Source of the DNA: an uncultured bacterium | Lineage (GTDB): Bacteria; Oederibacteriota; PGYV01; Palsa-1178 | Direction of reading: 5' to 3' | Assembly: GCA_937889595.1 (NCBI GenBank) | Contig: CALAOR010000057.1 | Location: 7,500 to 71,499, forward strand | Length of the DNA: 64,000 bases | Part shown: positions 7,174 through 25,919 of the stretch, piece by piece | How the letters are laid out: each line of letters starts with the position of its first letter | Numbering within the stretch: position 1 is the stretch's first letter | Translations under genes and position numbers: made by a program | Notes under the pieces: model-generated | What the model was told of the DNA's origin: nothing | Seen by the model: only the letters and a program-made list of their open reading frames with translations | Databases searched by the model: none

Positions 7174-7932
7174 TTACCAGTCTGTTTTTACAGGTTTTTC
7201 TTCCTTTTCATCATTGCCAAACGCGAGCATCAGGCCCGCGCCTATATAAAAACCCGAATAATCGACATTCTGGGGCGTTACTTCATTCCCGTACAGCGGC
7301 CCCCAGTTTATATCTATGCTTCCCTTTGCATACCTGTAGCCGCCCCGGAATGAAACGCCAAACTTGTCATTCAGCCACATGTCCATACCGGCCTCAAAAT
7401 TAAAGCCGTACAGGGCCGTGTTCCATGTTTTTTCAATTGTAAGCATATCTGACCCGTCGGGATAATATATAATGTCTTTTTCCCTGTTCCCCGAATTCAG
7501 GTAAAAGCAGGCGTCTGCCCCAACATAAAATGCGGCAATATACTTTCTTACCCCGAAACCGCCGTAATACACGCTGTAGTCGGACGTCATCTTTTCAAAA
7601 ACTGTTGCAGGATCGTAAAAGAGTTTTGATTCATTCCCCGCGTTAAGCCTTCCCCCGCGGAAATAAACCCCCCATGTTCCCGAATTTAAGCTCTCAAGGT
7701 TATAAACATAGCTGAATTCCGAAAGTACCGCGGTATCCATCCTGTTAAACTGCGATGATATCCCGTAGTAATTATATATATCGCGGCTTTGCTGGATCAA
7801 GGTATTGTAATCGGACATGGTTATCTGGTCATAAGCGATAAAAATTTCCATGTAACTTTTATTATTTGAGGCGCCCGCCCGGATTAACCCGGCTAAAAAA
7901 ACAAAAGTGATTATAATCGCATATTTTTTCAT
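7174..7932 (-). CDS. Outer-membrane beta-barrel protein (OmpW/Opa-like porin family)
   Basis: Signal peptide, alternating amphipathic beta-strand pattern, aromatic-rich sequence with a C-terminal aromatic residue. Confidence 0.6.
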   Translation of the reverse strand: MKKYAIIITFVFLAGLIRAGASNNKSYMEIFIAYDQITMSDYNTLIQQSRDIYNYYGISSQFNRMDTAVLSEFSYVYNLESLNSGTWGVYFRGGRLNAGNESKLFYDPATVFEKMTSDYSVYYGGFGVRKYIAAFYVGADACFYLNSGNREKDIIYYPDGSDMLTIEKTWNTALYGFNFEAGMDMWLNDKFGVSFRGGYRYAKGSIDINWGPLYGNEVTPQNVDYSGFYIGAGLMLAFGNDEKEEKPVKTDW

Positions 7933-7968
7933 TTTTCCCTGTTTGACATTATCCGTATTTATTGACCG

Positions 7969-10089
7969 CTATATAACTTCCGTGAAGTTTACCTCTATAT
8001 CCGAACCTTCGTATATCTGCGTGGTGTACCCGGCTTTTTCTCCGTTTACTTTCAGCTCCAGCATCCTGCCCTTGGCGCGTTCCATGTTTACGGGGTAGAA
8101 CTTGAATATGGAGGAGAGTATCATTTTCTCTTCCGTCAGTTTCTGCTCCAGTACCGCGCCGTTTATTATGAACTCGTCTTCCGGGACCTTCCTGCCGTTC
8201 ATGTATATATCGCTTTTTTCCTGCTCGAGCTCAAATGGCTTGCCGTTAATCATGACTTTTATTTTTTTTGCGGCCGTGTTCTTCAGGAGGTCTTTTATCC
8301 TGTAAAAAGCCGGGGAATCCACATACACAACCTTGTCCATGTTCCGCAGCGTATAACCGGGGGACACTTCAGCGCCGTTGACTTTCAGCTGGAAATTCCG
8401 CTGTTTTAGTATCACGGGCTCCTTGTTTACCGTCACTATGATATCGCGTTCATTGGACGCGCCCATCTCAAATCCCGCGCGCGCAAGCGCTTCTTTTATA
8501 TTATCCACCCTTTTTACCTCGATCTCAGCCCTGTCGCGGAGCGCCTCTTCCATGCTTACTTCCCTGCCGCCGCATAATACTACGGGCGCTATGTCGTGTT
8601 TTCTTCCGTTTATTTCCACGGTTGTGACGTAGCTTTCATGCACTATGTCTTTTATCAGGGCGTACGCGTTGTCACCGTCCTTTACCGGGCTGATAACCAG
8701 CACATCCCCGTGTTTTATTTCCGAATCAAGGTCTTTTTCCGCGTTGTTGACATAGACTTTAGAGTGCTCGGCACGGCTGCCGCGCAGTATTTTCAGCTCT
8801 CCGTTAAAAGTAAAGGTAATGGCCTGGCCGGGCCTGCCGTAAAGTTTTTTCAGTTCCATGCCCCTTGACATAATGACATCCATCACGGTTATTTTTTGCT
8901 CGAGGTTTATTATGTATTCCTTTTCCCCGTTAACCGTCACTTCCACAAAACCTATGCCTTTTTTAAAAAGCGCCGTTTCCAGGATACCAAGCGGGGTTAT
9001 TCCCTCTGTGCCTTTAAGCGAATCAGGCAGGTTTTCTATGTTTGTTATGGATTCAGGCGTCCTGCTTCCGACCCTGTTGATGGGCAATCCCAGATTCTCC
9101 GCCACTTTTTCGCGAAGTGCAAGCAGGGAGCTTCCGCCGCCCACCATTACCACGGCCTGCGGCTGTTTTCCGTTTAAGTTCAGGATCTCATCCGCTATGT
9201 CCTTTGCAACTTCCTCAGCTTTTGGCTCTGCCGCGGCTTTGAATCCGTCATAAGTGACCGTCACTGGTTGGTTGAAAATGTCCCTTGCTTCAAACACGCG
9301 CTCCGCGCTTGTTTCCCTTTTTATCCTCTCAGCCGTATTAAAGTCAACAAGGTACTCATGGCATATGGCCTCTGTTATCTCGTCGCCGGCTTTTGGTATC
9401 ATTCCGTAAGCGGTTATCTTATTTTTTTCGGTGATGGCTATGTCCGAAGTTCCGGCCCCCACATCCACAAGTGCGAGGTTCAAAAGCCTCATATCGTCGG
9501 GTATGGTGACATAAAGGGCCGCAATCGGCTCGAGCGTTATATACTCAAGGGTTAAGGAACAGTTTTTTAATACCGCTATCATGGAGTCAAGCACTGGTTT
9601 TGGCAGGAATGTGACTAAAGTTGAAACACCGACCGTATGTTTGGCGATTTGCTGCACCGGGTTTTTAATGTGCTCGCCGTCAACGCTGAAAGCAACCGGG
9701 GAATATCCCACGCAGTAATAATCCTTTTTCTTGTCCAGGGCAAGCTGTGACAAGCCCCGCCTTACGCTTTCAAGTTCCAGGTACGCAAGGTCTTCTTTTG
9801 TTATCTCTCCTTTTTTCTCCATTTCAGCTTCTGTTTTTTCCGTGTGCAGGCTTCTGCCCGCGAGCGCGGTGGTAACTTTTTCTATTATAATATTGTTCTT
9901 TTCTTCAAGTTTTCTTTTTATTTTATTTACTATTGTGGTGACGTCTTCTATATTATGTATCTGCCCGTCAAGCATGGCACGCTTATCATGCTCTAATACC
10001 ACGGCATCTATGATGTGCACCTTGTCCCCGCGCATCTCGCCGAGTATCCCGGCGACCTTGCGTGTTCCGATGTCTAAAGCAAATATCAT
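7969..10089 (-). CDS. FtsA/PilM-family actin-like ATPase (about 400 aa) fused to about 300 aa of six tandem small 'VNG(E/K)...GD' beta-grasp-like (ThiS/MoaD-like?) modules
   Basis: N-terminus LDIGTRKVAGILGE; phosphate-2 and adenosine motifs (LVDVGAGTSDIAI, VVMVGGGSSLLALRE) resemble FtsA. The C-terminus contains repeated TVNGEKEY.., TFNGELKI..GDVLVISPV, EINGRKHD.., KVNGAEVS.., MINGKPFE.., KVNGEKAG.. units. Confidence 0.7.
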   Translation of the reverse strand: MIFALDIGTRKVAGILGEMRGDKVHIIDAVVLEHDKRAMLDGQIHNIEDVTTIVNKIKRKLEEKNNIIIEKVTTALAGRSLHTEKTEAEMEKKGEITKEDLAYLELESVRRGLSQLALDKKKDYYCVGYSPVAFSVDGEHIKNPVQQIAKHTVGVSTLVTFLPKPVLDSMIAVLKNCSLTLEYITLEPIAALYVTIPDDMRLLNLALVDVGAGTSDIAITEKNKITAYGMIPKAGDEITEAICHEYLVDFNTAERIKRETSAERVFEARDIFNQPVTVTYDGFKAAAEPKAEEVAKDIADEILNLNGKQPQAVVMVGGGSSLLALREKVAENLGLPINRVGSRTPESITNIENLPDSLKGTEGITPLGILETALFKKGIGFVEVTVNGEKEYIINLEQKITVMDVIMSRGMELKKLYGRPGQAITFTFNGELKILRGSRAEHSKVYVNNAEKDLDSEIKHGDVLVISPVKDGDNAYALIKDIVHESYVTTVEINGRKHDIAPVVLCGGREVSMEEALRDRAEIEVKRVDNIKEALARAGFEMGASNERDIIVTVNKEPVILKQRNFQLKVNGAEVSPGYTLRNMDKVVYVDSPAFYRIKDLLKNTAAKKIKVMINGKPFELEQEKSDIYMNGRKVPEDEFIINGAVLEQKLTEEKMILSSIFKFYPVNMERAKGRMLELKVNGEKAGYTTQIYEGSDIEVNFTEVI

Positions 10090-10210: not shown

Positions 10211-10834
10211 TTAACTCACCCTTATCGCCGTCAGCAGCACTTTCACCGAAGGCTCGTCCGGTATCAGCAGCAGATACCCTTTTATGGCTTTTTCATTTGC
10301 CTCGGAAAATTGGGTTTCTATCGACAATATATGCGATGACATTCCGTCAAATCCGTCCGCTAATGACGAAAAAATGGCGCTTGCTATGTCAAACACCAGG
10401 TTCGGAACGGACGGCAGCAGCATGAGCCCCAAAAACTCGTTCAGCGAATTCATGTATGCGCCTGCCAGTATGTTTCCTGTTTCTTTTATCGCCGAGTTGC
10501 CGACTTCGGACAGCACTTTTGTCGACCCGGCGGGTTTTTGCAGCAGCAAATCAACCAGATTTAAGGCTGACTCCCTTGTCAAAAGCAGGAGTATTTTTGA
10601 AGTTATATCGCCCAGGACATTCATGATAACCCCTGCTACCAGCGTATTTGGGTCCCCCAAAAGCGAATCAATCTCCTGTGTCTTGATCACTTTTACTTCA
10701 GGCACGGATATCATAATTTTTTTCTTAATAAGCTGTGACAGGGCCGTGGCAGCGTGCCCGGCGCCTATGTTCCCGACTTCCTTTAAAGCATCTATCTGGG
10801 CGTCTGATAATGTCTGTAAACTGTTGTCCGACAC
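10211..10834 (-). CDS. cheC: CheC-family CheY-P phosphatase (copy 1)
   Basis: Two CheC consensus motifs (EVGNIGAGHAATALSQL and EVGNSAIKETGNILAGAYMNSL...P). Confidence 0.85.
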   Translation of the reverse strand: MSDNSLQTLSDAQIDALKEVGNIGAGHAATALSQLIKKKIMISVPEVKVIKTQEIDSLLGDPNTLVAGVIMNVLGDITSKILLLLTRESALNLVDLLLQKPAGSTKVLSEVGNSAIKETGNILAGAYMNSLNEFLGLMLLPSVPNLVFDIASAIFSSLADGFDGMSSHILSIETQFSEANEKAIKGYLLLIPDEPSVKVLLTAIRVS

Positions 10835-10940
10835 GGGGTCTCCTGTTGATTTTGATTTGTTCTCTGTTCTCTGTTCTACGTTCTATGTTATAAGCACTTT
10901 GTCCTTACACAGAACAAAGAACATAGAACATAGAACACTC

Positions 10941-12974
10941 TTAAACCATTTTGAGGTTGCTCTCAATAAGCGCCTGTATGTCCACGATCAGGCTGATCGA
11001 ACCGTCACCGAGTATGGTAACTCCCGAAAAACCTTTGGCAAACTTTAAAAATTCCCCCAGGCTTTTTATGGCTATTTCCTGCTGTCCCAATACTGAATCA
11101 ACAGTCAAGGCTATTTTTTTATCCCTTGCTTCTATTATCACCATATTTACTATTTCACTTTCCTTCTGCCTTCCTTTTCCTATCAGTTCGGAAAGCGAAA
11201 GCACGGGCACAACTTCGCCGCGCAGTATTATGACCCGCCTTGCCTGTATGTCCTTTATGTCTTTTGAAGGGAATTCAACGGTTTCTATGGTATGTATGAC
11301 CGGTATCGCATATGTGGCGCCGGCGGCCTTGACTAACAGGGCCTGTATTATGGCAAGCGTAAGGGGGAGCTTGAGTATTGATTTCATGCCCTCTCCCTGA
11401 TAATTTTCCATCCTGAATATCCCGCCGAATGCCTCTACTTTTGTCTTCACAACGTCGACTCCGACCCCCCTGCCCGACACATTATCCACTTTCTCGGCCG
11501 TTGAAAATCCGGGGATTGAAATTAAATTTACAAGTTCATCATCGGTTAAGGTGTCCAGTTTGTCAAGCGGCATGAGTTTTTTTTCAATTGCCTTTTTCCT
11601 GACTTTCTCCAGATTGATGCCGCGCCCGTCATCGGAAACTTCAATGATTACGGAGTTGCGGTCGCGCCGGGCGGAGAGCCTTATCACTCCTTTTTTTGTT
11701 TTGCCCGCGTTCTCACGCTGTTCGGGTGTTTCCAGGCCGTGTGCTATGCAGTTGCGGACCAGGTGGAGAATGGGTTCGTTTATTTCCTCTAATACCGTCC
11801 TGTCTATCTCTATGTCGCCTCCTGTTATCTCCACTTCAACCAGTTTTCCGGCCTGGCTGCTCAAATCGCGCACTATGCGCGGATAACGGTCAAATATATG
11901 GGAAACGGGGAGCATCCTGACGTCGGTTACCTCTATCTGCAGTTCGTCTATGATCCTGTCAAACTCATCCACGGTCGACGCTAAATCCCTGTAAGTCTTG
12001 TTCCTTGCTATCTGGTCAAGCCTTATCTTGGCTATAACAAGCTCGCCCACCAGGTTCATCATGGAATCAAGCTTTTCTATATTCACACGGACGCTTTGCG
12101 AGATTGCAGATGGTTTTTTTTCATTCTCAGCCGCAATTATTTCCTTATCACCGTTTTCAGCGTGCTTAAGATTTTCCTTTATTTCCTTTTTTTGAGCGCG
12201 TACTTCTTCTATGTCCGCCTTTTCAATTTCAGCTATCCTGGATATTGACTGTTCTATTTCCTGCGCAGGCGCTTTTGATACAAAACCCAGCTCAAAAGAA
12301 TTGTCAAAATTTCCTTCCTCTATGTCTTTTGCCTTAGGTGAAGATTTTACTATCTCTCCTTTTTCAGACAAATTGCGCGAGACCATGAAAGCCCTGACGC
12401 TTTTAAAAGCGCATGTCCTGGCTATGGTGACTTTTATCCTGTAGACTTTCATCCCTTGCGCGGCCGCTTCATTTAATATGAGGTCCTCTATGATAATGCC
12501 TGTTTCCGTTTTTAACGGGTCCGTTTCTCCGCTTAAAGACGCGGCAGGTACGGCCTGACGCGGTTGGGCGGCGGTTTTTATTTCCCGGGCAGGCGCCGAG
12601 CTTTTTGCCTTAATCTGGATTATTATATCCTTATAGCCTTTCGCAAAATCAACGTTTTGGTTCCTTATATTGTCGATAAACTCCTGCATTACATCTATGG
12701 ACCTAAAAAGCAGGTTTACTATGTCAATATCGGGCGCGAGCGTTCCGCCCCTGATCCTGTCCATAACGTCTTCGAGCATGTGGGTAAACTCAGCCAACTT
12801 ATCGTAGCCCATGGTTGCCGACATGCCTTTTAAGGTATGGGCCGCCCTGAAAAGTTCGTTTAAGGGCGTTAAGTCCTCAATGTTCTTTTCAAAATTAAGG
12901 AGAGCCTTGTTTAAGTTGTTTATGTTTTCCACAGCTTCCTCTAAAAACGCCTCTTTGTAGCTCTCAGTGTTCAT
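10941..12974 (-). CDS. cheA: Chemotaxis histidine kinase CheA
   Basis: Hpt (HTLKGMSATMG), dimerisation, HATPase_c and C-terminal CheW-like domains. Confidence 0.95.
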   Translation of the reverse strand: MNTESYKEAFLEEAVENINNLNKALLNFEKNIEDLTPLNELFRAAHTLKGMSATMGYDKLAEFTHMLEDVMDRIRGGTLAPDIDIVNLLFRSIDVMQEFIDNIRNQNVDFAKGYKDIIIQIKAKSSAPAREIKTAAQPRQAVPAASLSGETDPLKTETGIIIEDLILNEAAAQGMKVYRIKVTIARTCAFKSVRAFMVSRNLSEKGEIVKSSPKAKDIEEGNFDNSFELGFVSKAPAQEIEQSISRIAEIEKADIEEVRAQKKEIKENLKHAENGDKEIIAAENEKKPSAISQSVRVNIEKLDSMMNLVGELVIAKIRLDQIARNKTYRDLASTVDEFDRIIDELQIEVTDVRMLPVSHIFDRYPRIVRDLSSQAGKLVEVEITGGDIEIDRTVLEEINEPILHLVRNCIAHGLETPEQRENAGKTKKGVIRLSARRDRNSVIIEVSDDGRGINLEKVRKKAIEKKLMPLDKLDTLTDDELVNLISIPGFSTAEKVDNVSGRGVGVDVVKTKVEAFGGIFRMENYQGEGMKSILKLPLTLAIIQALLVKAAGATYAIPVIHTIETVEFPSKDIKDIQARRVIILRGEVVPVLSLSELIGKGRQKESEIVNMVIIEARDKKIALTVDSVLGQQEIAIKSLGEFLKFAKGFSGVTILGDGSISLIVDIQALIESNLKMV

Positions 12975-14035
12975 TTTGCTTCCCTTGTCATTATATTTAT
13001 TTCTTCGGTTATAAAATCCGCTATCTCATTTATGGGAAGGACCTTATCCGCGTAACCCTTATCAACTACGGATTTCGGCATTCCGTAAATCACGGAAGTG
13101 TCCTTGTCCTGGACTATTATCCTTGCTTTTTTTTCCTTTATTTTTTCCACCCCTGCTGTCCCGTCCCTGCCCATACCGGTCAGGATAACTCCTATAAGAC
13201 TTCCTTCAAAAACTTTTGCGGCGGAAAATAATGTCATGTCAGCGCATGGCCTGACCCCGAGCCTGGTCGGTTCCTGGTTCAATTCCACCCTGTATTCCGC
13301 GCCGGATTTTAATATTTCCATATGGTAATTGCCGGGTGCCACATAAGCCGTACCGGCTTTGATTATCTCGCCGTGCACAGCCTCCTTGACATGTATGAGA
13401 GATAATGAGTTAAGCCTGTCGGCAAGCGATTTAGTGAACCCTTCCGACATGTGCTGTATAATAAGGTATGAAGCCGGCAGATTGCGGGGTATTTTCGGCA
13501 CTACTTCGGTTAAGGCCCGTGGCCCTCCCGTTGATGTTGCTATTATTACCATAATCTCATTTTTTTGCTGTATTTCTTTTTCAGGATGTTTTACTTCCAC
13601 GTCTTCGGGCAGTGTAAAGGTTACCTTGTTCAAATCTATACTTTTTGCGGCCTTTATTTTTTCAACAAGCTCCTTCTGTATCTTTTTTATGTCCAGCGAT
13701 ATTTCGCCTGAAGGCTTGCATACAAAATCCACCGCCCCATACTGAAGTGCCTTAATTGTGATATCCGCGCCTTTGGGCGTGTAGGCTGACAACATGATCA
13801 CCGGGGTCGGTTTTTCGCTCATTATGTAGCCTAAGGTATGCAGCCCGTCCATTTCCGGCATTTCAACGTCAAGAGTGATTACATCCGGGGACAATTCCAT
13901 AGTTTTCTTAAATGCGTCCCTGCCGTCTTTGGCGGTCGCTATAACCTCTATATCCGGATCCTCGTTTAACATGTCCGGAATTATCTTGCGCATGAAAGCT
14001 GAGTCATCGACGACCAAGACCCGTATTTTAGCCAT
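12971..14035 (-). CDS. cheB: Chemotaxis methylesterase CheB (REC + CheB_methylest)
   Basis: N-terminal receiver domain (VLVVDDSAFMR) and a methylesterase domain with the catalytic Ser-His-Asp region. 4-bp overlap with cheA. Confidence 0.95.
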   Translation of the reverse strand: MAKIRVLVVDDSAFMRKIIPDMLNEDPDIEVIATAKDGRDAFKKTMELSPDVITLDVEMPEMDGLHTLGYIMSEKPTPVIMLSAYTPKGADITIKALQYGAVDFVCKPSGEISLDIKKIQKELVEKIKAAKSIDLNKVTFTLPEDVEVKHPEKEIQQKNEIMVIIATSTGGPRALTEVVPKIPRNLPASYLIIQHMSEGFTKSLADRLNSLSLIHVKEAVHGEIIKAGTAYVAPGNYHMEILKSGAEYRVELNQEPTRLGVRPCADMTLFSAAKVFEGSLIGVILTGMGRDGTAGVEKIKEKKARIIVQDKDTSVIYGMPKSVVDKGYADKVLPINEIADFITEEINIMTREAK

Positions 14036-14038
14036 ATA

Positions 14039-18075: not shown

Positions 18076-20273
18076 TTGATCAGTTTCTTCCTCGAAGATG
18101 ACGGCGAAAGCAGGAGTTCCTTTCTCCATACTTCCACCATTCTTATGTTTTCCTGCGCCGACCTTGACAATTCGCTGTCAGGCGTTATTTGCATATATTT
18201 TTTCCACATTTCTATGGCTTCATTCCACCATCCCTTGAACCTGTAAACCTCACCGAGTTTAAAAAACACTTCCACTATTTCAGGGCTCAATTCAATTGCT
18301 TTGTGATATTCGATGTCGGCTTCATCCCACCATTCTTTTTTAAAATAAGCGTTAGCGAGGTTAAAATGCCCGCGGCCATTCTGGGGGTTCCTGGAAACCA
18401 CGGAAATAAACACCTTAACGGCAGCATCAAAATCGAAGGTATCATAGAGCACGGACCCCATATTGTTCAGGGCATCCTGATTGTCAGGCTCTATTTTCAA
18501 TACTTTGTTATATTCTACAATAGCCTCCTGCAATTGTCCAGTATTTCTATACTCATTGCCTAGATCATAGGCCACGGAAGCGTTTGACTGGGCCTGATTT
18601 TGTTTTTCCTTTAATTTTTCTATGGTTTCCTTGAATACGACGTCTTTTTTCATCGCTGAATCCAGGTTTTTTTTGGCAACCGCGTACTCGGGATTTATCC
18701 TTAAAGCCTGGTCAAAAAAACGCTGGGCTTCCTTGAAAAAATTCTTTTTATAGTAAGCCACGCCAAGGTTATTATATGCCTTATAATATTCCCTGTCTAT
18801 TTCCACCGCCTTTTGATACTCTTCTATGGCTTTTTCAATATTACCGAGATTCTTATACGCTACCCCCATTGAATTATGGGCCACTGCATTATTCGGTTGG
18901 ACAGACAGGGTTTTTTGATATTCTATAATAGCCTCTTCATTCCTTCCTTTATCGGTTAAAACAAGTCCTAGGTACAGGTTTATCTCGGGCTTTTTTATGT
19001 AATTAGGCAGTATTTCAAGCGCGCGCCTGAGTTCGTTCACTGCCTCGTCATACCGCTTCAGTTTGTAATAGGATACCCCCAGGTAATAGTGGGCCTCATC
19101 GTCATAGGCTTCTTTGACCAGGTGCCGTTCGAGCACTTCTACAGCTTCCTGGATCTTTTCTTCCTTATACAAAAGTATGCCGCGTTCCAGTTCTATCCTT
19201 ACATATTCAGGGTTTTCTTCCGCAATCGCGTCCAGTACCTGTTTTGTTTTTTCAAATTCCTTCATTTCCCTGTAGGCCACCGCTATGTTGACCTTTGCCT
19301 CCACCATATCGGGCTTCAGCTTTAATGTCTGTTTGAATATCTCAACAGCTTCCTTTAGTATTCCTTTTTTTATCAGAAGCTCGCCGAAGAAATTATAGTA
19401 GGCAGGCTGCTTGGAATTATAGTGGATCGCCATTTTTATCTGGTTTATCGCGTCGTCGGTGTAGCCTTTAAGTTTGTAGACTTTTGCGAGGTTAAAATAC
19501 GCTTCTTCTTTTCTCTTTTCATCGGGAAGTTTTTCCACTTCCTCGCCCCGTTTTACTGCGGAATTGGTTTCATAATAATCTATGACAAGGCTTTTATTTG
19601 ACTGTATGAAAGCCGGGTTTAATTCTACGGCATGGTTATAGCACATACCCGCTTCCTCGTCTTTGCCTGTCTCGCCGTATACAAAACTTAAATTATAATA
19701 GGCGAGCGCGTATTCCTTGTTAAGCTGTATCGCTTTTTTCAGCTGTTCTTCCGCCTCGTCGTACATTCCGGTTTTATAAAGTGTTTCACCGAGGTTGTTG
19801 CGCAGTTCCGCGTAATTCGGGAATTTTTTCAGGGCCTCCCTGAAGACCGCTTCAGCCGTATTGTATTCACCCATGTTTTTGTATATAACGCCGAGCAGGT
19901 TCTGCGCGAGCAGGTGCTCGGGGTTTAATTCAAGGCATCTTTTAAGTTCTTTGACCGAAACTTCATAATCGCCGGTAAAACTCAGCGATTTTCCAAAGTT
20001 AAAATGTGTTTCAGGATCCGAAGGATACAGCTGGACAGCCTTCTTATATGCGGATATGGCCCTGTCATATATACCGGTCTGCTTGTTCACTGCCTTCAGG
20101 TTTGCCTGTGCCTGGGAATAATTTGGGTTTATGGACAGGGATTTTTTGAACTGTTCTATGGCTTCATGAAACATTCCTTTTGAATAATAATATACTCCCA
20201 CGTTATTTAAGGCGGTCGCGTCATTCTCGGAATTATTTTCCTTCAGTATTTCCCTGTCAGGGGCGCCCGGCAT
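18072..20273 (-). CDS. TPR-repeat protein (more than 15 TPR units)
   Basis: Repeated W-LG-Y-A-F-A-P 34-residue TPR consensus throughout. Confidence 0.85.
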   Translation of the reverse strand: MPGAPDREILKENNSENDATALNNVGVYYYSKGMFHEAIEQFKKSLSINPNYSQAQANLKAVNKQTGIYDRAISAYKKAVQLYPSDPETHFNFGKSLSFTGDYEVSVKELKRCLELNPEHLLAQNLLGVIYKNMGEYNTAEAVFREALKKFPNYAELRNNLGETLYKTGMYDEAEEQLKKAIQLNKEYALAYYNLSFVYGETGKDEEAGMCYNHAVELNPAFIQSNKSLVIDYYETNSAVKRGEEVEKLPDEKRKEEAYFNLAKVYKLKGYTDDAINQIKMAIHYNSKQPAYYNFFGELLIKKGILKEAVEIFKQTLKLKPDMVEAKVNIAVAYREMKEFEKTKQVLDAIAEENPEYVRIELERGILLYKEEKIQEAVEVLERHLVKEAYDDEAHYYLGVSYYKLKRYDEAVNELRRALEILPNYIKKPEINLYLGLVLTDKGRNEEAIIEYQKTLSVQPNNAVAHNSMGVAYKNLGNIEKAIEEYQKAVEIDREYYKAYNNLGVAYYKKNFFKEAQRFFDQALRINPEYAVAKKNLDSAMKKDVVFKETIEKLKEKQNQAQSNASVAYDLGNEYRNTGQLQEAIVEYNKVLKIEPDNQDALNNMGSVLYDTFDFDAAVKVFISVVSRNPQNGRGHFNLANAYFKKEWWDEADIEYHKAIELSPEIVEVFFKLGEVYRFKGWWNEAIEMWKKYMQITPDSELSRSAQENIRMVEVWRKELLLSPSSSRKKLIK

Positions 20274-20275
20274 CG

Positions 20276-20881
20276 TTATTTTTCCTCAAAGAATATATCA
20301 GGCTTAATCAGGGTTATTACTTCGCCCTCATCCTTGATCAGCCCGGAAATATATTTCTTATCCACAGTGAATGAATACTTGGTTATATTGGAGAAACTCG
20401 ACGACTGAAAGTTTCTGACCGACATAACTTTATCAACCAAAAAGCCGATTATCTTTTCTTTGAATTCTATGACCATTATCCTTGTTTCATCCGTGATTGA
20501 GTCCTCCACGCCGAATATCCTGCGGGAAATGGAAATCACGGGTATTACCTCGTTTCTTATGCTGATCATCCCCAGGATGTATCCCGGCAGGTTCGGCAGG
20601 CGTGTTATGTTCCTGTATTTTATTATCTCCCTTGAAAAAATAATTTCCATCCCGAAAAGTTCCTTGTTTATTTCCACGACCACAACAAGAAGCCCTTTTA
20701 ATACATTTATGATATTTTCTTCCTTGACGAAACGCATACGGACAAGTATTTTTCCCAGGGGTTCCTGTGGCTCCAAAGTCTGCTGTTCCTTTAAAGCTTC
20801 ATCCAGCTGTTCTTTCGTCAGGAAACCGGCCTGTATTAAAAGCTCGCCTAAACTTTTATCCTGTCCCTTAAAAACATCCAT
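20276..20881 (-). CDS. CheW-like domain protein with an N-terminal T2SSE_N/MshEN-like (putative c-di-GMP-binding) module
   Basis: N-terminus SLGELLIQAGFLTKEQLDEALKEQ...PLGKILVRMRFVKEENIINVLKGL fits the RLGxxLLxxGLLxxxxLxxxLxxQ tandem motif (the first R is replaced by S). The C-terminal approximately 140 aa is a CheW-like fold (ITRLPNLPGYILGMISIRNEVIPV). Confidence 0.65.
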   Translation of the reverse strand: MDVFKGQDKSLGELLIQAGFLTKEQLDEALKEQQTLEPQEPLGKILVRMRFVKEENIINVLKGLLVVVVEINKELFGMEIIFSREIIKYRNITRLPNLPGYILGMISIRNEVIPVISISRRIFGVEDSITDETRIMVIEFKEKIIGFLVDKVMSVRNFQSSSFSNITKYSFTVDKKYISGLIKDEGEVITLIKPDIFFEEK

Positions 20882-20895
20882 GCTTTATGACCACC

Positions 20896-22068
20896 TCATG
20901 CCCCGCCGAGAAGTTTCAGGTTTTTCCTGATTATCTCGTTTTCAGGGTTTAATTTTAGGGATTTTGTCCAGTAATCTTTTGCTTTTTCAGGGTTGTTCTC
21001 TTTCATTGATATGTTCCCCATCTTATAAAAAACATCCGCAGACTCCCTGCCGCTGTCTATGCTCTTTAAAAAATTTTCCTTGGCTTCCTTGTACTGTATC
21101 TTCCTATAAAAAATATGACCTATGTTCTCAAAAATCACAGGATCGTCCTTTTTAATTGCAAGCGCCTTCTGATATTCCCCGAGCGCTTCGTCGAGCTGGT
21201 CCTCTTCCGCGTATATAAACCCCAGGGCTTTATGGGTTTCAGCGTCCGCGGCGCCGAGCTCCGCAACTTTTTTATATTCTTCCAGCGCTTCCTTTTTTTT
21301 CCCTATTTTAGAATACACTTCACCGAGGATTATATATATTTCTGCGTTCCTGAATTTACTTTTCTTGGCCAGCTCAAGCTGCGCGATTGCCAGCTGATAT
21401 TCGCCTTTTTCAAAATAAAGCACGCCGAGATTAAAGGCAACCGCCGCGTCCCGCGGATTTATCACCACGGCTTTATTATAATGCTCTATGGCCTTGTCAA
21501 ACATTTTAAGTTCCCTGTATACGTTCCCCAGCATGGAGTTAATGCCCGGACTTTTGGGGTTTATCTTTATCACATTTTCATATTCCTCGGCTGCTTCCTT
21601 ATACTTTTTTTCCGATTCAAAAATATAGCCCAGCTTAAAACGCAGTTCTATGTTTGACGGGTCTTTTTCAAGCAGTGCCCTGTATTCGCGTTCCGCGTCA
21701 ATGGGTTTTTCCATCTTTGCGTATAAATCACCCAGCGCGTGCCTTGCCTGGATGTCATTCTTATTGATCTCCAGGGCTTTTTTGTACTGCTCAAGGCCTT
21801 TGTCAAAGTTCCCCATATTTGCATATAATTTACCGAGTTTTATTATGACGTTGACATTCACTGGGTTTATTTTCAGCGCCTTTTCATATTCTTTGATGCC
21901 ATCGTCATAATTGCCTTTATAGACATAGGCATTTCCAAGGAATGTGCGGACTTCCGCGTCATCCTCGTTTATGGAAAGCGCCTTTTCAAATTCCTTTATT
22001 GCCTGGTCATAACGCTTGCTCATGGTAAAAGCAAGCCCCAGATTTATATGGTCCTGTACCGTATCCAT
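20896..22068 (-). CDS. TPR-repeat protein
   Basis: About 10 tandem TPR units (AxxxLGxxYxxxGxYxxAIxxYxKALxxxP). Confidence 0.85.
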   Translation of the reverse strand: MDTVQDHINLGLAFTMSKRYDQAIKEFEKALSINEDDAEVRTFLGNAYVYKGNYDDGIKEYEKALKINPVNVNVIIKLGKLYANMGNFDKGLEQYKKALEINKNDIQARHALGDLYAKMEKPIDAEREYRALLEKDPSNIELRFKLGYIFESEKKYKEAAEEYENVIKINPKSPGINSMLGNVYRELKMFDKAIEHYNKAVVINPRDAAVAFNLGVLYFEKGEYQLAIAQLELAKKSKFRNAEIYIILGEVYSKIGKKKEALEEYKKVAELGAADAETHKALGFIYAEEDQLDEALGEYQKALAIKKDDPVIFENIGHIFYRKIQYKEAKENFLKSIDSGRESADVFYKMGNISMKENNPEKAKDYWTKSLKLNPENEIIRKNLKLLGGA

Positions 22069-22874
22069 TATATTTTTCTGAATATCCTCTCTTTTATATT
22101 TATGCAGTTAAACCTGTCGCGAAAGTCCTGCAGCATAGTTTCCGTCTTGCCGAGAAAAAGTATTCCGTTCTCCTTTAAGGAGTCGTAATAATGCCCCAAT
22201 ACCGTTCTTTGCAGCTCCCGCGTGAAGTATATGATAACGTTCCTGCAAAAAACAACGTCAAAAAAATTTTTTTTGTACGGCTCCATCAGGTTCAATTTTA
22301 TTATCTTTACTTTCTGCCTGATTGATTCTTTAACAGAGAAATTCTTCCCGTCGTCGGTGAAGAAGTACCTGGTTTTCCTGTCTTGCGCTATGTTGTCGAG
22401 CGTCCTTCCCTCATATATCCCCGCCGCTGCTTTTTGTATGGCGATTATATCGAGGTCAGTCGCGTATATTTCAAAACCATAATTCATAATTCCCATTTTT
22501 TCCGCTGTTTCTTCTATTGATATGGCTATGGAGTACGGTTCCTCGCCCGTGGAACAACCGGCGCTCCATACCTTAAGCGGCCATTTTATGTTTCTCAATA
22601 TATCAGGCAGTATGGTATTCTCAAGTTCCACAAAAATTTCCGGGTCCCTAAAAAACTGCGTCACGTTTATAGTAAGTTTATCGAGCAGTATATCATACTC
22701 GCTCCTGTGGTTCTGCAGATAGATAAAATAACCGTCATATTTTGTGAACTGCAAGGACCTCATGCGGACCGCAATGCGCCTTTTGATGTAATTTTCCTTG
22801 TACTGGCTCACATCAAGGGCTTTTTCCAGGCGTATACCGTCTTTTATTTTTATAAAAGCTTCTTCTTCATTCAT
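22068..22874 (-). CDS. cheR: Chemotaxis protein methyltransferase CheR
   Basis: CheR N-terminal domain (TQFFRD) and a SAM-binding domain (WSAGCSTGEEPYSIA; CRNVIIYF). Confidence 0.9.
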   Translation of the reverse strand: MNEEEAFIKIKDGIRLEKALDVSQYKENYIKRRIAVRMRSLQFTKYDGYFIYLQNHRSEYDILLDKLTINVTQFFRDPEIFVELENTILPDILRNIKWPLKVWSAGCSTGEEPYSIAISIEETAEKMGIMNYGFEIYATDLDIIAIQKAAAGIYEGRTLDNIAQDRKTRYFFTDDGKNFSVKESIRQKVKIIKLNLMEPYKKNFFDVVFCRNVIIYFTRELQRTVLGHYYDSLKENGILFLGKTETMLQDFRDRFNCINIKERIFRKI

Positions 22875-24280
22875 TAATTCACTAAACCCTTTGTGCTTTG
22901 TTTATTGCCTTCTTCAGCGGGCGTATTTTCCATCGAATCAAGGAACACCTTGACTATGTGCGAGTCAAACTGGCTGCCGGCGCAGCGTTTCAGTTCGGTT
23001 GCAGCTTCCTCTTTGGTACGCGCCCTGCGGTACGGCCTTTCTGCCAGCATTACCGAGTAAGCATCGGCGACGGCGCATATTCTGGAACCAAGCGGTATTT
23101 TATCGCCAATTAATTTCTTGGGGTAGCCTCTACCGTCAAAATGTTCATGATGATACAAAATGATGGGCAGTATGTCTTCAAAAATATCCATCCCGTTCAG
23201 TATATCCACCCCATCCTGCGGGTGCTTTTTTACCGTTTCATATTCTTCCGCCGTCAAGGTCGAGGGTTTTTTCAGTATCTCGCTGCTTATTTTTATTTTT
23301 CCTATGTCGTGCAGCAGCGCGGCGTGTTTTATTTTTTCGCACTCTTCGGGTGGCAGTTTCATTTGTTGGGCTATCTGCAACGCGTACTTCATGGTTGAAA
23401 ACGAATGTCCGTGCGTATCATGGTCCTTTATGTCTATGGCCATAACAAGCGTTTCTATGATATTTTCATGGTTATCCGACATCTGCCCCAGCATGTCATG
23501 TTTTTCTATTATTATAAAAACCTGGGCCGCGAAAAATTCTGCTATATAAATATCATTGTGTGAAAATCCGGTTTTTTTGTAAAGAACTACGGCGCCGCTT
23601 AAGCCTTTTTCGCCTTTAACCGGAATAACCGTCATAAATCCTTCGCTTATATCCTGAACCAGCCTTAAGAACCCCGCCTGGACATTCCTCAAAAATAACG
23701 GGGACAGGTCATTGTCCGCCACGCGCATTTCTATTTCCTTGTCCTTATATACCCCGTAGGAGTGCTTTAGTGAAAGATTTGTTTCTCCGGGCTTATCCGG
23801 GCCGTATATGAGAACATGGCTGCATCCGCTTAAATTTGTTACATTGCGCGCGAGCAGGCTAAAGAGCTCGGGACGGGTTAAACCTTTTTTTATCTCCAAA
23901 AGCATATCATGGGCGATAATGAATGAATTGGTTATTTTATCCACAAAACTTTTTTCTTCAAGCGATGATTTATCCGCTGCATCTTCATACAGGGGTTTAA
24001 GCCTGATCCTGTCGGAAAGCACGGCAAACGCCGCGTAAACAAGGGTATTAACCGCTATATCAGCAAGGGCGGCTTCATGATGCATGGAATAAAACGCAAA
24101 ATTAAAAAACAAACCGCTTAATATCCCGTTGGCCCATCCCGAGCTGATTGAAACCAGTATGACCGCGGCTCCCGCGGCTAAAAAAACATAACCAGCTTTA
24201 ATTCCCATGAAATCAACGGCCAGCATCAAAAGTACGGCTCCCGCTGTGATTAATACAATGTATCTTTTTTTCAGCCTCAT
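22874..24280 (-). CDS. Membrane-anchored HD-GYP domain c-di-GMP phosphodiesterase with a GAF-like sensor region
   Basis: N-terminal TM helices. HD motif (LLHDIGK) and HHEHFDGRGYP (HD-GYP signature). Confidence 0.85.
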   Translation of the reverse strand: MRLKKRYIVLITAGAVLLMLAVDFMGIKAGYVFLAAGAAVILVSISSGWANGILSGLFFNFAFYSMHHEAALADIAVNTLVYAAFAVLSDRIRLKPLYEDAADKSSLEEKSFVDKITNSFIIAHDMLLEIKKGLTRPELFSLLARNVTNLSGCSHVLIYGPDKPGETNLSLKHSYGVYKDKEIEMRVADNDLSPLFLRNVQAGFLRLVQDISEGFMTVIPVKGEKGLSGAVVLYKKTGFSHNDIYIAEFFAAQVFIIIEKHDMLGQMSDNHENIIETLVMAIDIKDHDTHGHSFSTMKYALQIAQQMKLPPEECEKIKHAALLHDIGKIKISSEILKKPSTLTAEEYETVKKHPQDGVDILNGMDIFEDILPIILYHHEHFDGRGYPKKLIGDKIPLGSRICAVADAYSVMLAERPYRRARTKEEAATELKRCAGSQFDSHIVKVFLDSMENTPAEEGNKQSTKGLVN

Positions 24281-24291
24281 ATTTTCACCGT

Positions 24292-25509
24292 TTATTTGGC
24301 GGACTTTACCACGTCGCCGGCATTAATTACGCCTTCCTGTTCCGTGACAACCGCCACGCTTGTATCCTTCATGGAATTTATTACCATAAGTTTTCCTGTC
24401 TTGTGATAAACATCATTATTACCCGTGGCCTTATTTAGTATGGACCTGTAAACGGTCATTATTTCGCCGGGCATCAACCCGGCTTTTACCCCTTTATTCA
24501 GGTAAACTATGTCTTTCTTTTTAACATTTATAATATTATTCTGGACTTTTATTATGAAAGCCTCTATTACACCGGTTTTCTTTTTTATCCTTGTGGTGAC
24601 TTTATTATAGTAATCCTTAAAGTCCTTCCTCATTTTTATTTTAAAGTTCTGGCTTACCGGCCCGTAACTCTTCACTATATTTACCTTCCATATTCCCTCA
24701 TCGGCTTTTTCAATTATTTTTCCAACCGCGCGGACGTCAATAAGCCTGCCTTTATCTTCGCCTGTTACAATATCCTCAACGTTCTCGTTATCCGTATATA
24801 TAAGGAACTGCATGCCTGTTTTTATGGATTTTCCGACTGTAACCTTTATGTACGCGGACATTCCCTGAACTATAATTTCACTGCCGTCCACGTCATATAT
24901 AAAACCGTCTTCGGGAAAATTGTCGCTGATAAAACCGGCGCGTTCCACCATGACATATCCCGCTTTTTCAATCCTGTTCGTACCTTCCGCTTCCATAAGT
25001 ATTATGCCGCCTGTCTCGCCTTCTTCGGCATCAGGCCCTTCAAATGTCACGTTTACTTCCGACTTGTCCGTATCCCCTTCATCCACAGGCGTTGTTTTCT
25101 TTTTTGATATTATGTATTTTTCAAGTTCTTCCGTTGATGTTTCGCCGGGATTTAAGATAACGATCCCTTCTTCCTCCGGGGATGCCGTGTTGTCTATTTC
25201 GATTTTATTTACTTTTTCTTCCGTTACCGCGGTTGCCGCCTCCCGGGCAGGCTCCGGTGTGGACATTCCGGCTTGAATCTGCGTGGTTGTTACCGCCGCA
25301 GTTTGTCCTGCAGCTGCCTGTCCAGCAGGTCCAGGAGTAGCTGCAGCGGGTTTTGATGCCGTATCAGGCGCCGTTGTCGGCTGGACTGTAGCTTCAGAGC
25401 TCCCGCTTTTTTCAACCGCGACTGGTTCAGCAGCCGCGGCATATGTGTGAAATAATATTATCGCCATTCCGCAGGACATAAAAAATAGGAGCATTTTTGT
25501 TTTCTTCAT
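24292..25509 (-). CDS. Secreted protein with an Ala/Thr/Pro-rich linker and a C-terminal beta-rich domain. Function unknown.
   Basis: Signal peptide and a low-complexity A/T/P/Q region. First-but-one gene of the chemosensory operon. Confidence 0.5.
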   Translation of the reverse strand: MKKTKMLLFFMSCGMAIILFHTYAAAAEPVAVEKSGSSEATVQPTTAPDTASKPAAATPGPAGQAAAGQTAAVTTTQIQAGMSTPEPAREAATAVTEEKVNKIEIDNTASPEEEGIVILNPGETSTEELEKYIISKKKTTPVDEGDTDKSEVNVTFEGPDAEEGETGGIILMEAEGTNRIEKAGYVMVERAGFISDNFPEDGFIYDVDGSEIIVQGMSAYIKVTVGKSIKTGMQFLIYTDNENVEDIVTGEDKGRLIDVRAVGKIIEKADEGIWKVNIVKSYGPVSQNFKIKMRKDFKDYYNKVTTRIKKKTGVIEAFIIKVQNNIINVKKKDIVYLNKGVKAGLMPGEIMTVYRSILNKATGNNDVYHKTGKLMVINSMKDTSVAVVTEQEGVINAGDVVKSAK

Positions 25510-25523
25510 GTCATCCCCTTAAA

Positions 25524-25919
25524 TTAAAATGATGTTGAATATTGCCGCAGCAGTGTCTTTGCCTGATCTATATTCTTCGCGTCAGGATAAGTTTCTATGT
25601 ACATCTTTAGTGTTTCCCTGACCTTAACCGGCTGGATTTCTTTTTCGTAAATTAAAGCTGACTTAAAAATCAATTCCGGTACCCTGGCTGATTTGCCTTC
25701 ATATCGCAGGTTGTATTTGTCAATGAGTTCCAGGGTGCGTTCAAAATTACCTATTAAATCCATATATCGTATGTTTAAATAAGCCGATTTTTCCAGATCG
25801 GGTTCTTTTAAATTGTCCACGGACCAGGTTTCGATGTACTTGCTTATTCTTTCGGAATCTCCTATTATATAGCCTGCGGCCAAAATTATTATAACGGCAA
25901 AAATCAACATATTTTTCAT
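25524..25919 (-). CDS. Small membrane-anchored helical (TPR-like) protein. Function unknown.
   Basis: N-terminal TM/signal anchor, then a helical repeat-like sequence. First gene of the operon. Confidence 0.45.
   Translation of the reverse strand: MKNMLIFAVIIILAAGYIIGDSERISKYIETWSVDNLKEPDLEKSAYLNIRYMDLIGNFERTLELIDKYNLRYEGKSARVPELIFKSALIYEKEIQPVKVRETLKMYIETYPDAKNIDQAKTLLRQYSTSF

Follow-up and report, generated by a model that had tools for sequence, protein, structure and literature searches.

In the window (the whole stretch of DNA analysed, 64,000 nucleotides), 19 co-directional minus-strand open reading frames tile positions 7174-25919, as the preliminary description had proposed, and all of its testable domain calls proved right in Pfam and NCBIfam searches. 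In transcription order, the genes and the associated features are as follows.

26123..26151, minus strand: candidate operon promoter matching the consensus (TTGACA, 17 nt, TG-extended TAAAAT)
25524..25919, minus strand: g01, 131 aa, with an N-terminal membrane anchor or signal sequence (hydrophobic residues 1-23)
24292..25509, minus strand: g02, secreted protein of 405 aa with an Ala/Thr/Pro-rich linker (hydrophobic residues 6-26)
22874..24280, minus strand: g03, membrane-anchored HD-GYP c-di-GMP phosphodiesterase (HD_5, 136.8 bits)
22068..22874, minus strand: g04, CheR methyltransferase (CheR, 185 bits, plus CheR_N)
20896..22068, minus strand: g05, cytoplasmic all-TPR protein of 390 aa (TPR families, no hydrophobic segment)
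20276..20881, minus strand: g06, MshEN-like c-di-GMP-binding motif (residues 10-64) and CheW domain (residues 66-195)
18072..20273, minus strand: g07, cytoplasmic all-TPR protein of 733 aa (TPR families)
17737..18075, minus strand: g08, PII-family protein of 112 aa (P-II, 91 bits)
17277..17642, minus strand: g09, CheY of 121 aa (Response_reg, 102 bits)
16651..17274, minus strand: g10, CheC phosphatase (best NCBIfam model CheC_Thtogales, 168 bits)
16164..16646, minus strand: g11, CheD (101 bits; best NCBIfam model CheD_Thtga)
14874..16148, minus strand: g12, MCP of 424 aa with a 44H-type signalling domain (MCPsignal, 154 bits)
14379..14870, minus strand: g13, canonical CheW (129.5 bits)
14039..14425, minus strand: g14, CheY, a 128-aa ORF
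12971..14035, minus strand: g15, CheB with REC and methylesterase domains (NF001965, 432 bits, over the cut-off)
10941..12974, minus strand: g16, CheA with P1 (Hpt), P2, P3 (dimerisation), P4 (HATPase) and P5 (CheW) domains
10835..10940, minus strand: cheA-cheC spacer, a long imperfect hairpin made of GTTCTNT heptamer repeats
10211..10834, minus strand: g17, second CheC, with a GTG start and an AGGAG ribosome-binding site (CheC_Thtogales, 177 bits)
7969..10089, minus strand: g18, 706 aa, FtsA-like actin-fold ATPase (residues 1-375) followed by tandem beta-grasp modules
7174..7932, minus strand: g19, secreted protein of 252 aa with a signal-peptide-like N-terminus

By ORF coordinates, 15 of the 18 junctions overlap or span at most 36 bp. 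The two spacing exceptions reported previously, 94 bp between the PII gene and cheY and 106 bp between cheA and cheC, are both present, but they are not the only ones, as 121 bp separate cheC from the FtsA-like gene. The candidate promoter is the best sigma-70-like site across positions 6900-26800, with 11 of 12 consensus matches, and lies downstream of the cspA terminator hairpin at ~26270-26300. Judged from these sequence features, the operon is probably transcribed as a single unit from a promoter near 26.1 kb, and internal promoters could lie in the three gaps of 94-121 bp. The hairpin of the cheA-cheC spacer has a free energy of -37.9 kcal/mol (z = -6.4), and its repeat is unique within the window; it has no U-tract and is therefore not an obvious terminator. 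The spacer is missing from the related locus L100, where cheA and cheC overlap.

The Che core carries hallmarks of class F1, the Thermotoga/Bacillus/archaeal type, an assignment resting on proxies (domain set, best models and alignments) and not on MiST class models. Traits of this class, which belongs to the Wuichet and Zhulin classification, include CheC, CheD, the P2 domain and 44H receptors. As in the F1 systems of T. maritima, B. subtilis and archaea, CheA comprises P1-P5 including P2 and is accompanied by CheW, CheY, CheB, CheR, CheC and CheD, with CheC and CheD matching Thermotogales models best. CheA scores 500 bits with CheA_Halo, the archaeal F1-type model, against 375 bits with the E. 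coli-type model, and aligns without gaps to P3-P5 of T. maritima CheA; CheY also scores best on the archaeal F1-type model. The 128-aa CheY aligns gapless to T. maritima CheY (PDB 4IGA, 1TMY; 178 bits, 70% identity), the 121-aa CheY is 64% identical to it, and the CheY alpha4-beta5-alpha5 face is nearly the same as in the T. maritima protein. Both D/S-x3-E-x2-N-x22-P sites can be read in the sequence of the first CheC, to which the second is 40% identical. The MCP has an N-terminal hydrophobic region (residues 8-67), by eye two membrane helices joined by a short loop, and no periplasmic sensor domain; its residues 127-418 align gapless over 292 residues to residues 17-308 of TM1143 (T. maritima, PDB 2CH7). 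Further 44H-type receptors include the MCP encoded outside the operon at 27020-28819. The earlier view that the cluster fits no characterised Che class thus does not hold for the core, given its P2-containing CheA, Thermotogales-type CheC and CheD and TM1143-like MCP. Unlike F1 systems, however, the cluster duplicates CheY, CheC and CheW, sits outside any fla operon and holds an HD-GYP enzyme, two large TPR proteins, an MshEN-CheW protein, PII and an FtsA-like ATPase.

The first of the TPR genes, g05, starts where cheR ends, with a 1-nt overlap, and in relatives it always follows cheR directly. By analogy, its product is a possible CheR partner, a split version of the CheR-TPR fusion methyltransferases such as FrzF of M. 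xanthus and WspC (PMC2535941, PMC3447774). Both arrangements couple a CheR catalytic unit to TPR repeats, but here they are two separate polypeptides, and g05 has ~9 or more repeats, compared with few in FrzF and typical fusions. Such fusions are found mainly in non-flagellar ACF clusters (PMC3447774), whereas the present cluster has single-domain CheY and F1 traits. The second TPR protein, g07, is better conserved than CheA (92% versus 88% identity in L009, 71% versus 58% in L100), and its stop codon overlaps the ATG of the PII gene as ATGA. In L001, g07 and PII have been lost jointly, leaving a clean junction. The most probable start of the PII gene is 18075, corresponding to Met19 in the long ORF, and its relatives are likewise called at 112 aa. 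It resembles canonical GlnB/GlnK in length, in identity (~46-54%), in a Pfam P-II score over the cut-off and in its conserved K58; in the alignment, the GDGKIF and RxR motifs and the nucleotide-site residues are kept. It differs from them in scoring under both equivalog cut-offs (106 versus 202 bits), in a rewritten T-loop that lacks Tyr51, and in its setting, as it is translationally coupled to a TPR protein in a che operon instead of neighbouring amtB, glnA or nif.

Between the TPR genes lies g06, which scores 55.1 bits with the MshE-related NCBIfam model NF053729 (cut-off 38) and 94 bits with CheW. Its N-terminus consists of two tandem 24-residue (R)LGxxLLxxGLLxxxxLxxxLxxQ-like motifs, resembling the MshEN c-di-GMP receptor domain of V. 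cholerae MshE, which is best known from MshE/PilB-type ATPases (PMC5013675). The linker has 7 residues as against 5, and the domain is fused here to a stand-alone CheW domain. MshEN fusions to CheA, CheX, HD-GYP and REC were listed by Wang et al. 2016, whose main text as searched has no mention of an MshEN-CheW fusion (PMC5013675). In the AF2 model of g06, four short helices precede a CheW fold that matches CheW structures at TMt 0.82-0.87. The MshEN motif is conserved among orthologs. Relative to the consensus, motif 1 has Ser in place of Arg and motif 2 has Arg in place of Gly, so c-di-GMP binding by g06 is not certain; the motif 2 Gly is kept in the orthologs of L008, L010 and L090.

At the upstream end of the operon, the HD-GYP enzyme has intact HDIGK and HHEHFDGRGYP motifs, hydrophobic segments within residues 6-89 and a middle region with a weak GAF match. 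The two genes preceding it are as described previously, each product carrying a hydrophobic stretch at its N-terminus and matching no family: profile searches gave only a weak TPR_6 match for g01 (E=0.013), g02 matched nothing in Pfam or NCBIfam, and against PDB g02 had a non-significant match to TsaP (E=0.024). An ortholog of g01 occupies the equivalent position in L100 (27% identity), and orthologs of g02 occur in L001 (41%) and L100 (33%).

At the downstream end, g18 matches FtsA better than PilM (36 bits with the pilM model, cut-off 133). Unlike FtsA and PilM, it scores under both the ftsA and pilM family cut-offs, it lacks ftsZ or pilNOPQ context, and its C-terminal ~330 aa (residues 377-706) consist of ThiS-like beta-grasp modules in tandem, four to six in number and ~60 aa each. 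About 70 of 80 metagenome loci of this FtsA-like family are not near che genes, and other members adjoin aroA/ccpA, mutS2 or nth. Most che-linked members fall in one clade of a rough NJ tree, so the linkage could have arisen once. Positioning ATPases of other che clusters, ParC/ParP of Vibrio and PpfA of Rhodobacter, are Walker ATPases of the ParA/MinD type that have been shown to act in localising arrays. Like them, g18 would be a cytoskeletal or positioning protein that depends on nucleotide and whose gene lies within a che cluster or at its end; unlike them, it is an FtsA/PilM-type actin-fold ATPase with beta-grasp repeats, whose role we infer purely from these features. The last gene, g19, has no family or PDB match, and outer-membrane beta-barrel is a putative label for its product; among the 11 related loci of the genome scan, only L004 and L009 carry it, and its membership of the system is doubtful.

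The preliminary description had seen a compact unit in which all parts of a Che core are combined with c-di-GMP turnover, a CheW resembling a c-di-GMP receptor, PII and an FtsA-like ATPase, and this view is supported. It had also suggested looking for the same gene order in relatives. L100 keeps 18 of the genes in unchanged order; its internal gaps reach at most 27 bp, and many neighbouring genes overlap by 1-4 nt, cheA, cheC and the FtsA-like gene among them. All Goldbacteria-type loci but L001 share the order CheR, TPR, MshEN-CheW, TPR, PII, CheY, CheC, CheD, and so do L090 (CheA 41% identity), L099 and L102, and L101. The genes g05-g08 recur with che genes in at least four deeply diverged lineages, even without MCP, CheA and the FtsA-like gene. 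On this comparative sequence evidence, the extras of the unit are conserved and not accidental, and the deeply diverged loci L090, L099, L101 and L102 retain the TPR/MshEN-CheW/TPR/PII block. The cheC/FtsA-like pair is found in relatives down to 39-42% CheA identity, including a PVC-group MAG.

Whether all the extras belong to the system was considered separately. It is quite unlikely, in our judgement, that the system consists of the Che genes only and that some or all of the extras (g18 and g19 above all, possibly g01 and g02) are unrelated to it and stay nearby through phylum-level synteny. Such synteny exists, since dprA-topA(-xerC) downstream and cspA upstream are also conserved beside the cluster, and the mostly che-unlinked distribution of the widespread FtsA-like family, the possible single origin of its che linkage and the rarity of g19 would fit this reading, as would L016, where a GH3 gene separates the FtsA-like gene from cheC. 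However, g05-g08 are interleaved between cheR and cheY, include a CheW domain and recur across diverged lineages; the FtsA-like gene shares 1 nt with cheC or abuts it in L100 and L013; and the L019 locus, although rearranged, still has the FtsA-like gene between cheA and cheC-cheD-cheY.

We regard it as moderately likely that the locus is an F1-class chemotaxis operon of a soil bacterium in the uncultured FCPU426/Goldbacteria phylum, with an inserted, lineage-conserved accessory module, in which CheY-P acts on the flagellar switch. The F1 hallmarks of the core make a flagellar output the most likely reading of the sequence. The preliminary description had instead favoured an output other than flagellar rotation. 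It was right that flagellar and motor genes are absent: none of these and no pilus genes were found among ORFs of at least 150 aa up to 58 kb of the window and in the further contig sequence reached. No flagellar gene was found in any locus retrieved or on the 73-kb source contig, although absence from this contig says little about the remaining genome. A non-flagellar output (surface behaviour, envelope or polysaccharide, polarity or c-di-GMP level), with the FtsA-like ATPase and/or the HD-GYP enzyme as the output, would also agree with the HD-GYP enzyme and c-di-GMP receptor domain within the operon, the actin-fold ATPase conserved beside cheC, the MCP without a periplasmic sensor domain, and the TPR protein translationally linked to CheR, which recalls the fusions of ACF clusters (PMC3447774). 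We nevertheless consider it unlikely. ACF systems typically have multidomain response regulators (PMC3447774), while the two found here are simple CheY proteins with 64-70% identity to T. maritima CheY, which binds the motor; CheC, CheD, the P2 domain and 44H receptors speak for F1; and the HD-GYP enzyme has no receiver domain and thus cannot be directly phosphorylated by CheA. Goldbacteria, unlike sister phyla, moreover reportedly carry flagellar genes (PMC7031533, Fig. 4 legend).

Regulation of a type IV pilus-like machine appears very improbable. Three hints point in this direction: g18 has a PilM-like fold, MshEN domains typically occur in ATPases of pili and type II secretion, and g02 has the weak TsaP match. 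However, g18 is nearer FtsA than PilM, the TsaP match is not significant, and no pilN/O/P/Q, pilB/T or pilin genes lie nearby. Traits of the Tfp class include a ChpA-like multi-Hpt CheA, PilG/PilH and a 40H PilJ, and the Che core has none of these.

The novelty of the presumed F1-class operon is in its accessory genes, a conserved and uncharacterised set for which the mechanism can be given by inference only. An HD-GYP enzyme, a putative c-di-GMP-binding coupling protein, PII and an FtsA-like ATPase are not known to form part of Thermotoga/Bacillus-type chemotaxis systems. In the proposed scheme, CheY-P would act on a flagellar switch whose genes lie elsewhere in the genome. The MshEN-CheW protein would join the receptor array as an alternative coupling protein and make behaviour c-di-GMP-dependent, while the membrane-bound HD-GYP enzyme would set the local c-di-GMP level, and the extracytoplasmic g01 and g02 proteins may pass signals to it. 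PII would report ATP/ADP status, and perhaps 2-oxoglutarate, via its re-tooled T-loop, its most likely partner being the highly conserved, translationally coupled 733-aa TPR scaffold. The 390-aa TPR protein would work with CheR, much as a TPR domain fused to CheR tunes receptor methylation. The FtsA-like/beta-grasp protein would serve as an ATP-dependent membrane-proximal scaffold tied to CheC or the array, and might position the array like the ParA-type ATPases of other che clusters. If this scheme is true, not only external ligands but also the second-messenger level and the metabolic state would bias swimming in these bacteria.

Nineteen open reading frames tile positions 7174-25919 on the minus strand, as the preliminary description had proposed, and every family name it assigned was confirmed by Pfam and NCBIfam. 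The operon and the elements within and next to it are listed here.

7174-25919, minus strand: operon, in transcription order
genes 1-5: 131-aa membrane-anchored protein; 405-aa secreted Ala/Thr/Pro-rich protein; HD-GYP protein; CheR; 390-aa TPR protein (TPR390)
genes 6-12: 201-aa MshEN-CheW protein; 733-aa TPR protein (TPR733); PII; CheY (CheY121); CheC; CheD; 424-aa MCP (MCP424)
genes 13-19: CheW; CheY (CheY128); CheB; CheA; second CheC; 706-aa FtsA-like protein; 252-aa secreted protein (gene 19)
10835-10940, minus strand: long, imperfect hairpin in the cheA-cheC spacer, with tandem GTTCTNT heptamers and their inverse
26273-26708, minus strand: cspA gene, the operon's immediate upstream neighbour; its leader matches the Rfam cspA thermoregulator over the full length (93 bits)
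27020-28819, minus strand: second MCP, 599 aa, upstream of cspA, with a HAMP domain and two membrane segments that flank a periplasmic region

The junctions between these genes measure, in transcription order, 14, 11, -1, -1, 14, 2, -4, 94, 2, 4, 15, 3, -47, 3, -4, 106, 121 and 36 bp, where negative values are overlaps. The spacers of 94 and 106 bp had been recognised from the outset as exceptions to the tight packing, but a third, of 121 bp, which separates the second cheC from the FtsA-like gene, had been overlooked. The -4 junction between the TPR733 and PII genes presupposes Met19 of the long reading frame as the PII start; we adopted it because the Pfam and NCBIfam alignments begin there, because the start codon and the TPR733 stop codon overlap in an ATGA, and because the PII gene calls in relatives are 112 aa long. 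The cspA gene has a clear terminator hairpin at about 26270-26300, and the best sigma-70-like site of the region, a candidate promoter by sequence match, lies past that hairpin at 26151-26123. The position of cspA is held by a cold-shock-domain gene at the related locus L100 as well. The hairpin in the cheA-cheC spacer is very stable (-37.9 kcal/mol, z = -6.4) and lacks a U-tract; its sequence occurs nowhere else in the window, and L100 is among the relatives without it. For genes 1, 2 and 19, searches relaxed to E = 10 still yielded no informative match to a family or a PDB entry; an identification of gene 2 as TsaP was rejected, its PDB match being non-significant.

The preliminary description had proposed looking for the same gene order in relatives, and all 11 related genome loci, with CheA identities of 58-88%, indeed keep the gene order from cheR through to the FtsA-like gene. 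The window lies on a 73.5-kb contig of a soil metagenome (ENA ERZ923668, k127_823080), and its organism is a member of candidate division FCPU426 (Candidatus Goldbacteria or Goldiibacteriota). The closest CheA (88%) comes from an FCPU426 peat MAG, and the remaining relatives carry the labels FCPU426, Goldiibacteriota or, used loosely, 'Spirochaetia'. At L100 (CheA 58%), 18 genes in the window's order come after cspA, running from the gene 1 homolog to the FtsA-like gene, with internal gaps of at most 27 bp and many overlaps of 1-4 nt, including those of cheA with cheC and of cheC with the FtsA-like gene. A single operon is hard to avoid in L100. The three larger spacers of the window are lineage-specific insertions, in which internal signals might lie. 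Lineage-specific insertions within the cluster are also found at L002, with two reading frames without a family match between cheA and cheC (12025-13936), and at L016, where a GH3 beta-glucosidase gene separates cheC from the FtsA-like gene (7584-9857). One locus, L001, lacks exactly TPR733 and PII and has a clean junction in their place, and gene 19 is present at only two of the 11 (L004 and L009).

Far more distant than these 11 loci is L090 (CheA 41%, TopA 51% identity), which has the order MshEN-CheW, TPR, PII, CheY, CheC, CheD, MCP, CheW, CheY, CheB, CheA, CheC, FtsA-like, DprA, TopA; L101 has the same upstream half. Two other loci, L099 and L102 (7816-19690 in the latter), encode CheR, TPR, MshEN-CheW, TPR, PII, CheY, CheC, CheD, CheW, CheY and CheB in clusters without an MCP, CheA or FtsA-like gene, and 1.4 kb downstream of the L102 cluster lies a REC-GAF-HD-GYP gene. 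Since these distant loci keep the block, TPR390, MshEN-CheW, the TPR protein of about 730 aa and PII form an invariant accessory core between cheR and cheY-cheC-cheD.

The preliminary description had found no characterised Che class of this composition. The core itself probably belongs to a known class, and its sequences carry F1-class traits: a CheA with P2, CheC and CheD, a 44H-type MCP and Thermotoga-like CheY. The F1 class is the type of Thermotoga, Bacillus and archaea. By Pfam, CheA has Hpt, P2, H-kinase_dim, HATPase_c and CheW domains and no Response_reg. CheC and CheD are present alongside CheB, CheR, CheW and CheY; the best NCBIfam models of both CheC proteins and of CheD are CheC_Thtogales and CheD_Thtga, yet the scores lie below the equivalog cut-offs, and each CheC has two intact phosphatase motifs. 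As proxies for F-class models, the haloarchaeal CheA_Halo (500 bits against 375 bits for the E. coli-type model) and CheY_Halo both outscore their E. coli counterparts. Residues 127-418 of MCP424 align with residues 17-308 of T. maritima TM1143 (PDB 2CH7) over 292 residues with zero gaps, whereas alignment with the shorter E. coli-type receptors requires indels; MCP424 is thus a 44H receptor insofar as TM1143 is one, as we take it to be. The best PDB match of the second MCP (27020-28819) is also TM1143, gapless over 170 residues. Together the parts make up a complete F1-type phosphorelay, methylation-based adaptation and CheC/CheD feedback.

It had been suggested at the outset that the pathway controls something other than flagellar rotation. 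We consider that the core probably has a flagellar output, as CheY128 and CheY121 are single-domain proteins 70% and 64% identical to the motor-binding CheY of T. maritima, with a nearly unchanged alpha4-beta5-alpha5 face. The best argument for a non-flagellar, ACF-like output is that the TPR390 gene overlaps the cheR stop by one base. According to PMC3447774, multidomain response regulators and fusions of CheR to TPR repeats are the marks of ACF pathways, and neither is strictly present here: both response regulators are single-domain, CheA has no REC domain and CheR is unfused. We regard a non-flagellar output as unlikely. The statement that the block has no flagellar genes holds for all surveyed window reading frames (of at least 150 aa, up to 58 kb); the fla genes immediately outside the window that would have spoken for a canonical flagellar class do not occur on the 73-kb contig beyond either end, nor are flagellar genes found in the fetched loci or flanks of relatives. 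One indirect statement in the literature implies that Goldbacteria carry flagellar genes (PMC7031533). The surveyed window reading frames include no pil genes, and control of type IV pili seems highly improbable. That the additional genes are mere syntenic neighbours of the Che core is quite unlikely for the set as a whole; it would be most plausible for gene 19, with its presence at two of the 11 loci, and somewhat plausible for the FtsA-like gene.

The FtsA-like protein (7969-10089) has an FtsA-type actin fold. It scores 116 bits with the FtsA equivalog TIGR01174 (cut-off 175.85), its neighbours are cheC and dprA with no ftsZ, and its C-terminal region consists of beta-grasp repeats. An assignment to PilM was rejected both on its score (TIGR01175, 36 bits against a cut-off of 133) and on gene context. 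A first search for this family of FtsA-like proteins of about 710 aa with tandem ThiS-like beta-grasp modules returned at least 8000 candidates, including members from Omnitrophota, the PVC group, Synergistetes, Brevibacillus and many metagenomes; the family is widespread and appears uncharacterised. Most members lie away from che genes. In a subset, the gene directly follows cheC, namely in a PVC-group MAG (L013) and in four metagenome contigs (L018, L050, L085 and L090), and at L019 it lies between cheA-GAF/PAS and cheC-cheD-cheY. In a rough neighbour-joining tree, che-linked members mostly fall in one clade, with L090 elsewhere. The linkage of cheC with the FtsA-like gene is therefore old and maintained, though it could go back to just one or two origins.

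In members outside this che-linked clade, the neighbours are aroA/ccpA and ytxG/ytxH-like genes, or the gene follows mutS2. In the unrelated lineage of L014/L015 (12815-14433), the order is mutS2, the FtsA-like gene, a Pkinase-UvrD gene, a lone CheW and an HD-GYP gene, an association with CheW and HD-GYP that echoes the one in the window. Downstream of the che cluster, dprA-topA-xerC (1732-6146, minus strand) follows, likewise in the deeply diverged L013, L016 and L090 (with trmFO); this recalls B. subtilis, where the neighbourhood is dprA-topA-trmFO-xerC-hslVU-codY-fla/che. Further features of the window are listed here.

8-409, plus strand: reading frame of SALLSALQSASLSASL-type low-complexity repeats, near the end of the source contig
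35527-37131, minus strand: GH44 cellulase
44244-45647, minus strand: GGDEF diguanylate cyclase
52111-52617, minus strand: cNMP-binding protein

The repeat at 8-409 probably broke the assembly. A cellulolytic lifestyle has been described for the Goldbacteria phylum (PMC7031533), and the GH44 cellulase fits it.

In the MshEN-CheW protein, the CheW domain spans residues 66-195, and residues 11-62 score 55.1 bits with NF053729, the MshE-related c-di-GMP motif (cut-off 38). The MshEN motif has 24 residues, [RKPN]hGxxhhxx[GAS]hhxxxxhxxxhxx[QNKRYWST], and occurs in two copies joined by a short linker, here of 7 residues. Motif 1 departs from this pattern only by a Ser at position 1 (consensus Arg); motif 2 has Arg at the [GAS] position (consensus Gly) and Leu at the last position, and otherwise fits. 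The Gly of motif 2 is kept in the orthologs of L008, L010 and L090, and both motifs are conserved across orthologs, including that of L090. An AF2 model (pLDDT 81) places four short helices ahead of an ordinary CheW fold (TMt 0.82-0.87 against CheW structures); Foldseek matched this model to CheW only, with no match to MshEN. The MshEN fusions listed by Wang et al. (2016) have CheA, CheX, HD-GYP and REC as partners, and a search of the main text found no mention of a fusion to a stand-alone CheW of the kind seen here (PMC5013675). We found no characterised MshEN-CheW protein. A word-indexed search found about 50 such proteins, all of Goldbacteria type, and an exhaustive profile search contained four full-length representatives among its best 150 matches, which were dominated by multi-CheW proteins. 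The HD-GYP protein of the operon, a putative phosphodiesterase (HD_5, 136.8 bits), keeps the HD and GYP motifs intact (HDIGK and HHEHFDGRGYP), with hydrophobic segments within residues 6-89 and a weak GAF-like middle region. The GGDEF protein of the window is a possible source of the c-di-GMP that the HD-GYP protein would degrade.

PII is a member of the P-II family (PF00543, 91 bits against a cut-off of 25) and keeps the nucleotide-site residues K58, GDGKIF and RIRTGE (the RxR motif). Its identity to ordinary GlnB/GlnK is about 46-54%, and it falls short of both equivalogs, scoring 106 bits where 202 are required and 100 bits where 181 are. The T-loop is rewritten, with Val at position 51 in place of Tyr51. 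In a homolog search, the scores of the che-linked PII group merge with those of generic GlnB/GlnK at about 120 bits, and no additional che-linked lineages were found. TPR733 is strikingly conserved, with 92% identity in L009 and 71% in L100, compared with 88% and 58% for CheA. Translational coupling and joint loss in L001 suggest that PII and TPR733 act as a pair. Assignment of the TPR proteins to MamA, PilW, Tgl and others was rejected, the NCBIfam matches being generic repeat matches. Literature searches turned up nothing relevant on che operons that include an FtsA-like protein or PII.

The preliminary description was accurate. What is new, and so far uncharacterised, is the conserved accessory module together with the pairing of cheC with the FtsA-like gene. 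A possible reading, which we put forward tentatively, is an undescribed input layer for flagellar-type chemotaxis that combines PII/TPR gating, c-di-GMP-CheW gating and an FtsA-like partner. PII with its re-tooled T-loop may report ATP/ADP, perhaps 2-oxoglutarate, and would gate the receptor-kinase array by energy and carbon-nitrogen state through a large TPR scaffold, with TPR733 the most likely route to its partner. The membrane HD-GYP enzyme, which may be informed by the two extracytoplasmic proteins encoded just upstream, would keep c-di-GMP low or shape it locally; the MshEN-CheW protein would read the level and, as a CheW paralog, could occupy sites of the coupling protein within the receptor lattice and thereby change how the kinase is controlled. 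The FtsA-like/beta-grasp ATPase may be a new cytoskeletal protein of the actin fold that works with chemosensory arrays or with the CheC phosphatase, serving as a scaffold tied to CheC or to array placement. ParC and PpfA are ParA-type proteins; the FtsA-like ATPase would resemble them in logic and differs in fold. The MCP of the operon has no periplasmic domain, which fits an integrator of cytoplasmic or membrane inputs. TPR390 may modulate CheR, as the TPR domain of FrzF does (PMC2535941).

Such a layer would matter in several ways if it exists, and the conservation of the module across diverged lineages makes the proteins testable by heterologous expression although the organisms are uncultured. 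Known links between c-di-GMP and chemotaxis act at the motor (YcgR/MotI-type brakes), on CheR (MapZ), or through PilZ-containing receptors and CheY-like effectors; to our knowledge, and in agreement with the searchable literature, none acts at a c-di-GMP-binding CheW. A CheW of this kind, if confirmed, would bring the messenger into the array lattice. Among PII proteins, which are central sensors of metabolism, each new target class has so far been informative; we know of no described chemotaxis target, and none appeared in the literature searched. For the FtsA-like/beta-grasp family, the recurrent pairing with cheC provides a first functional handle.
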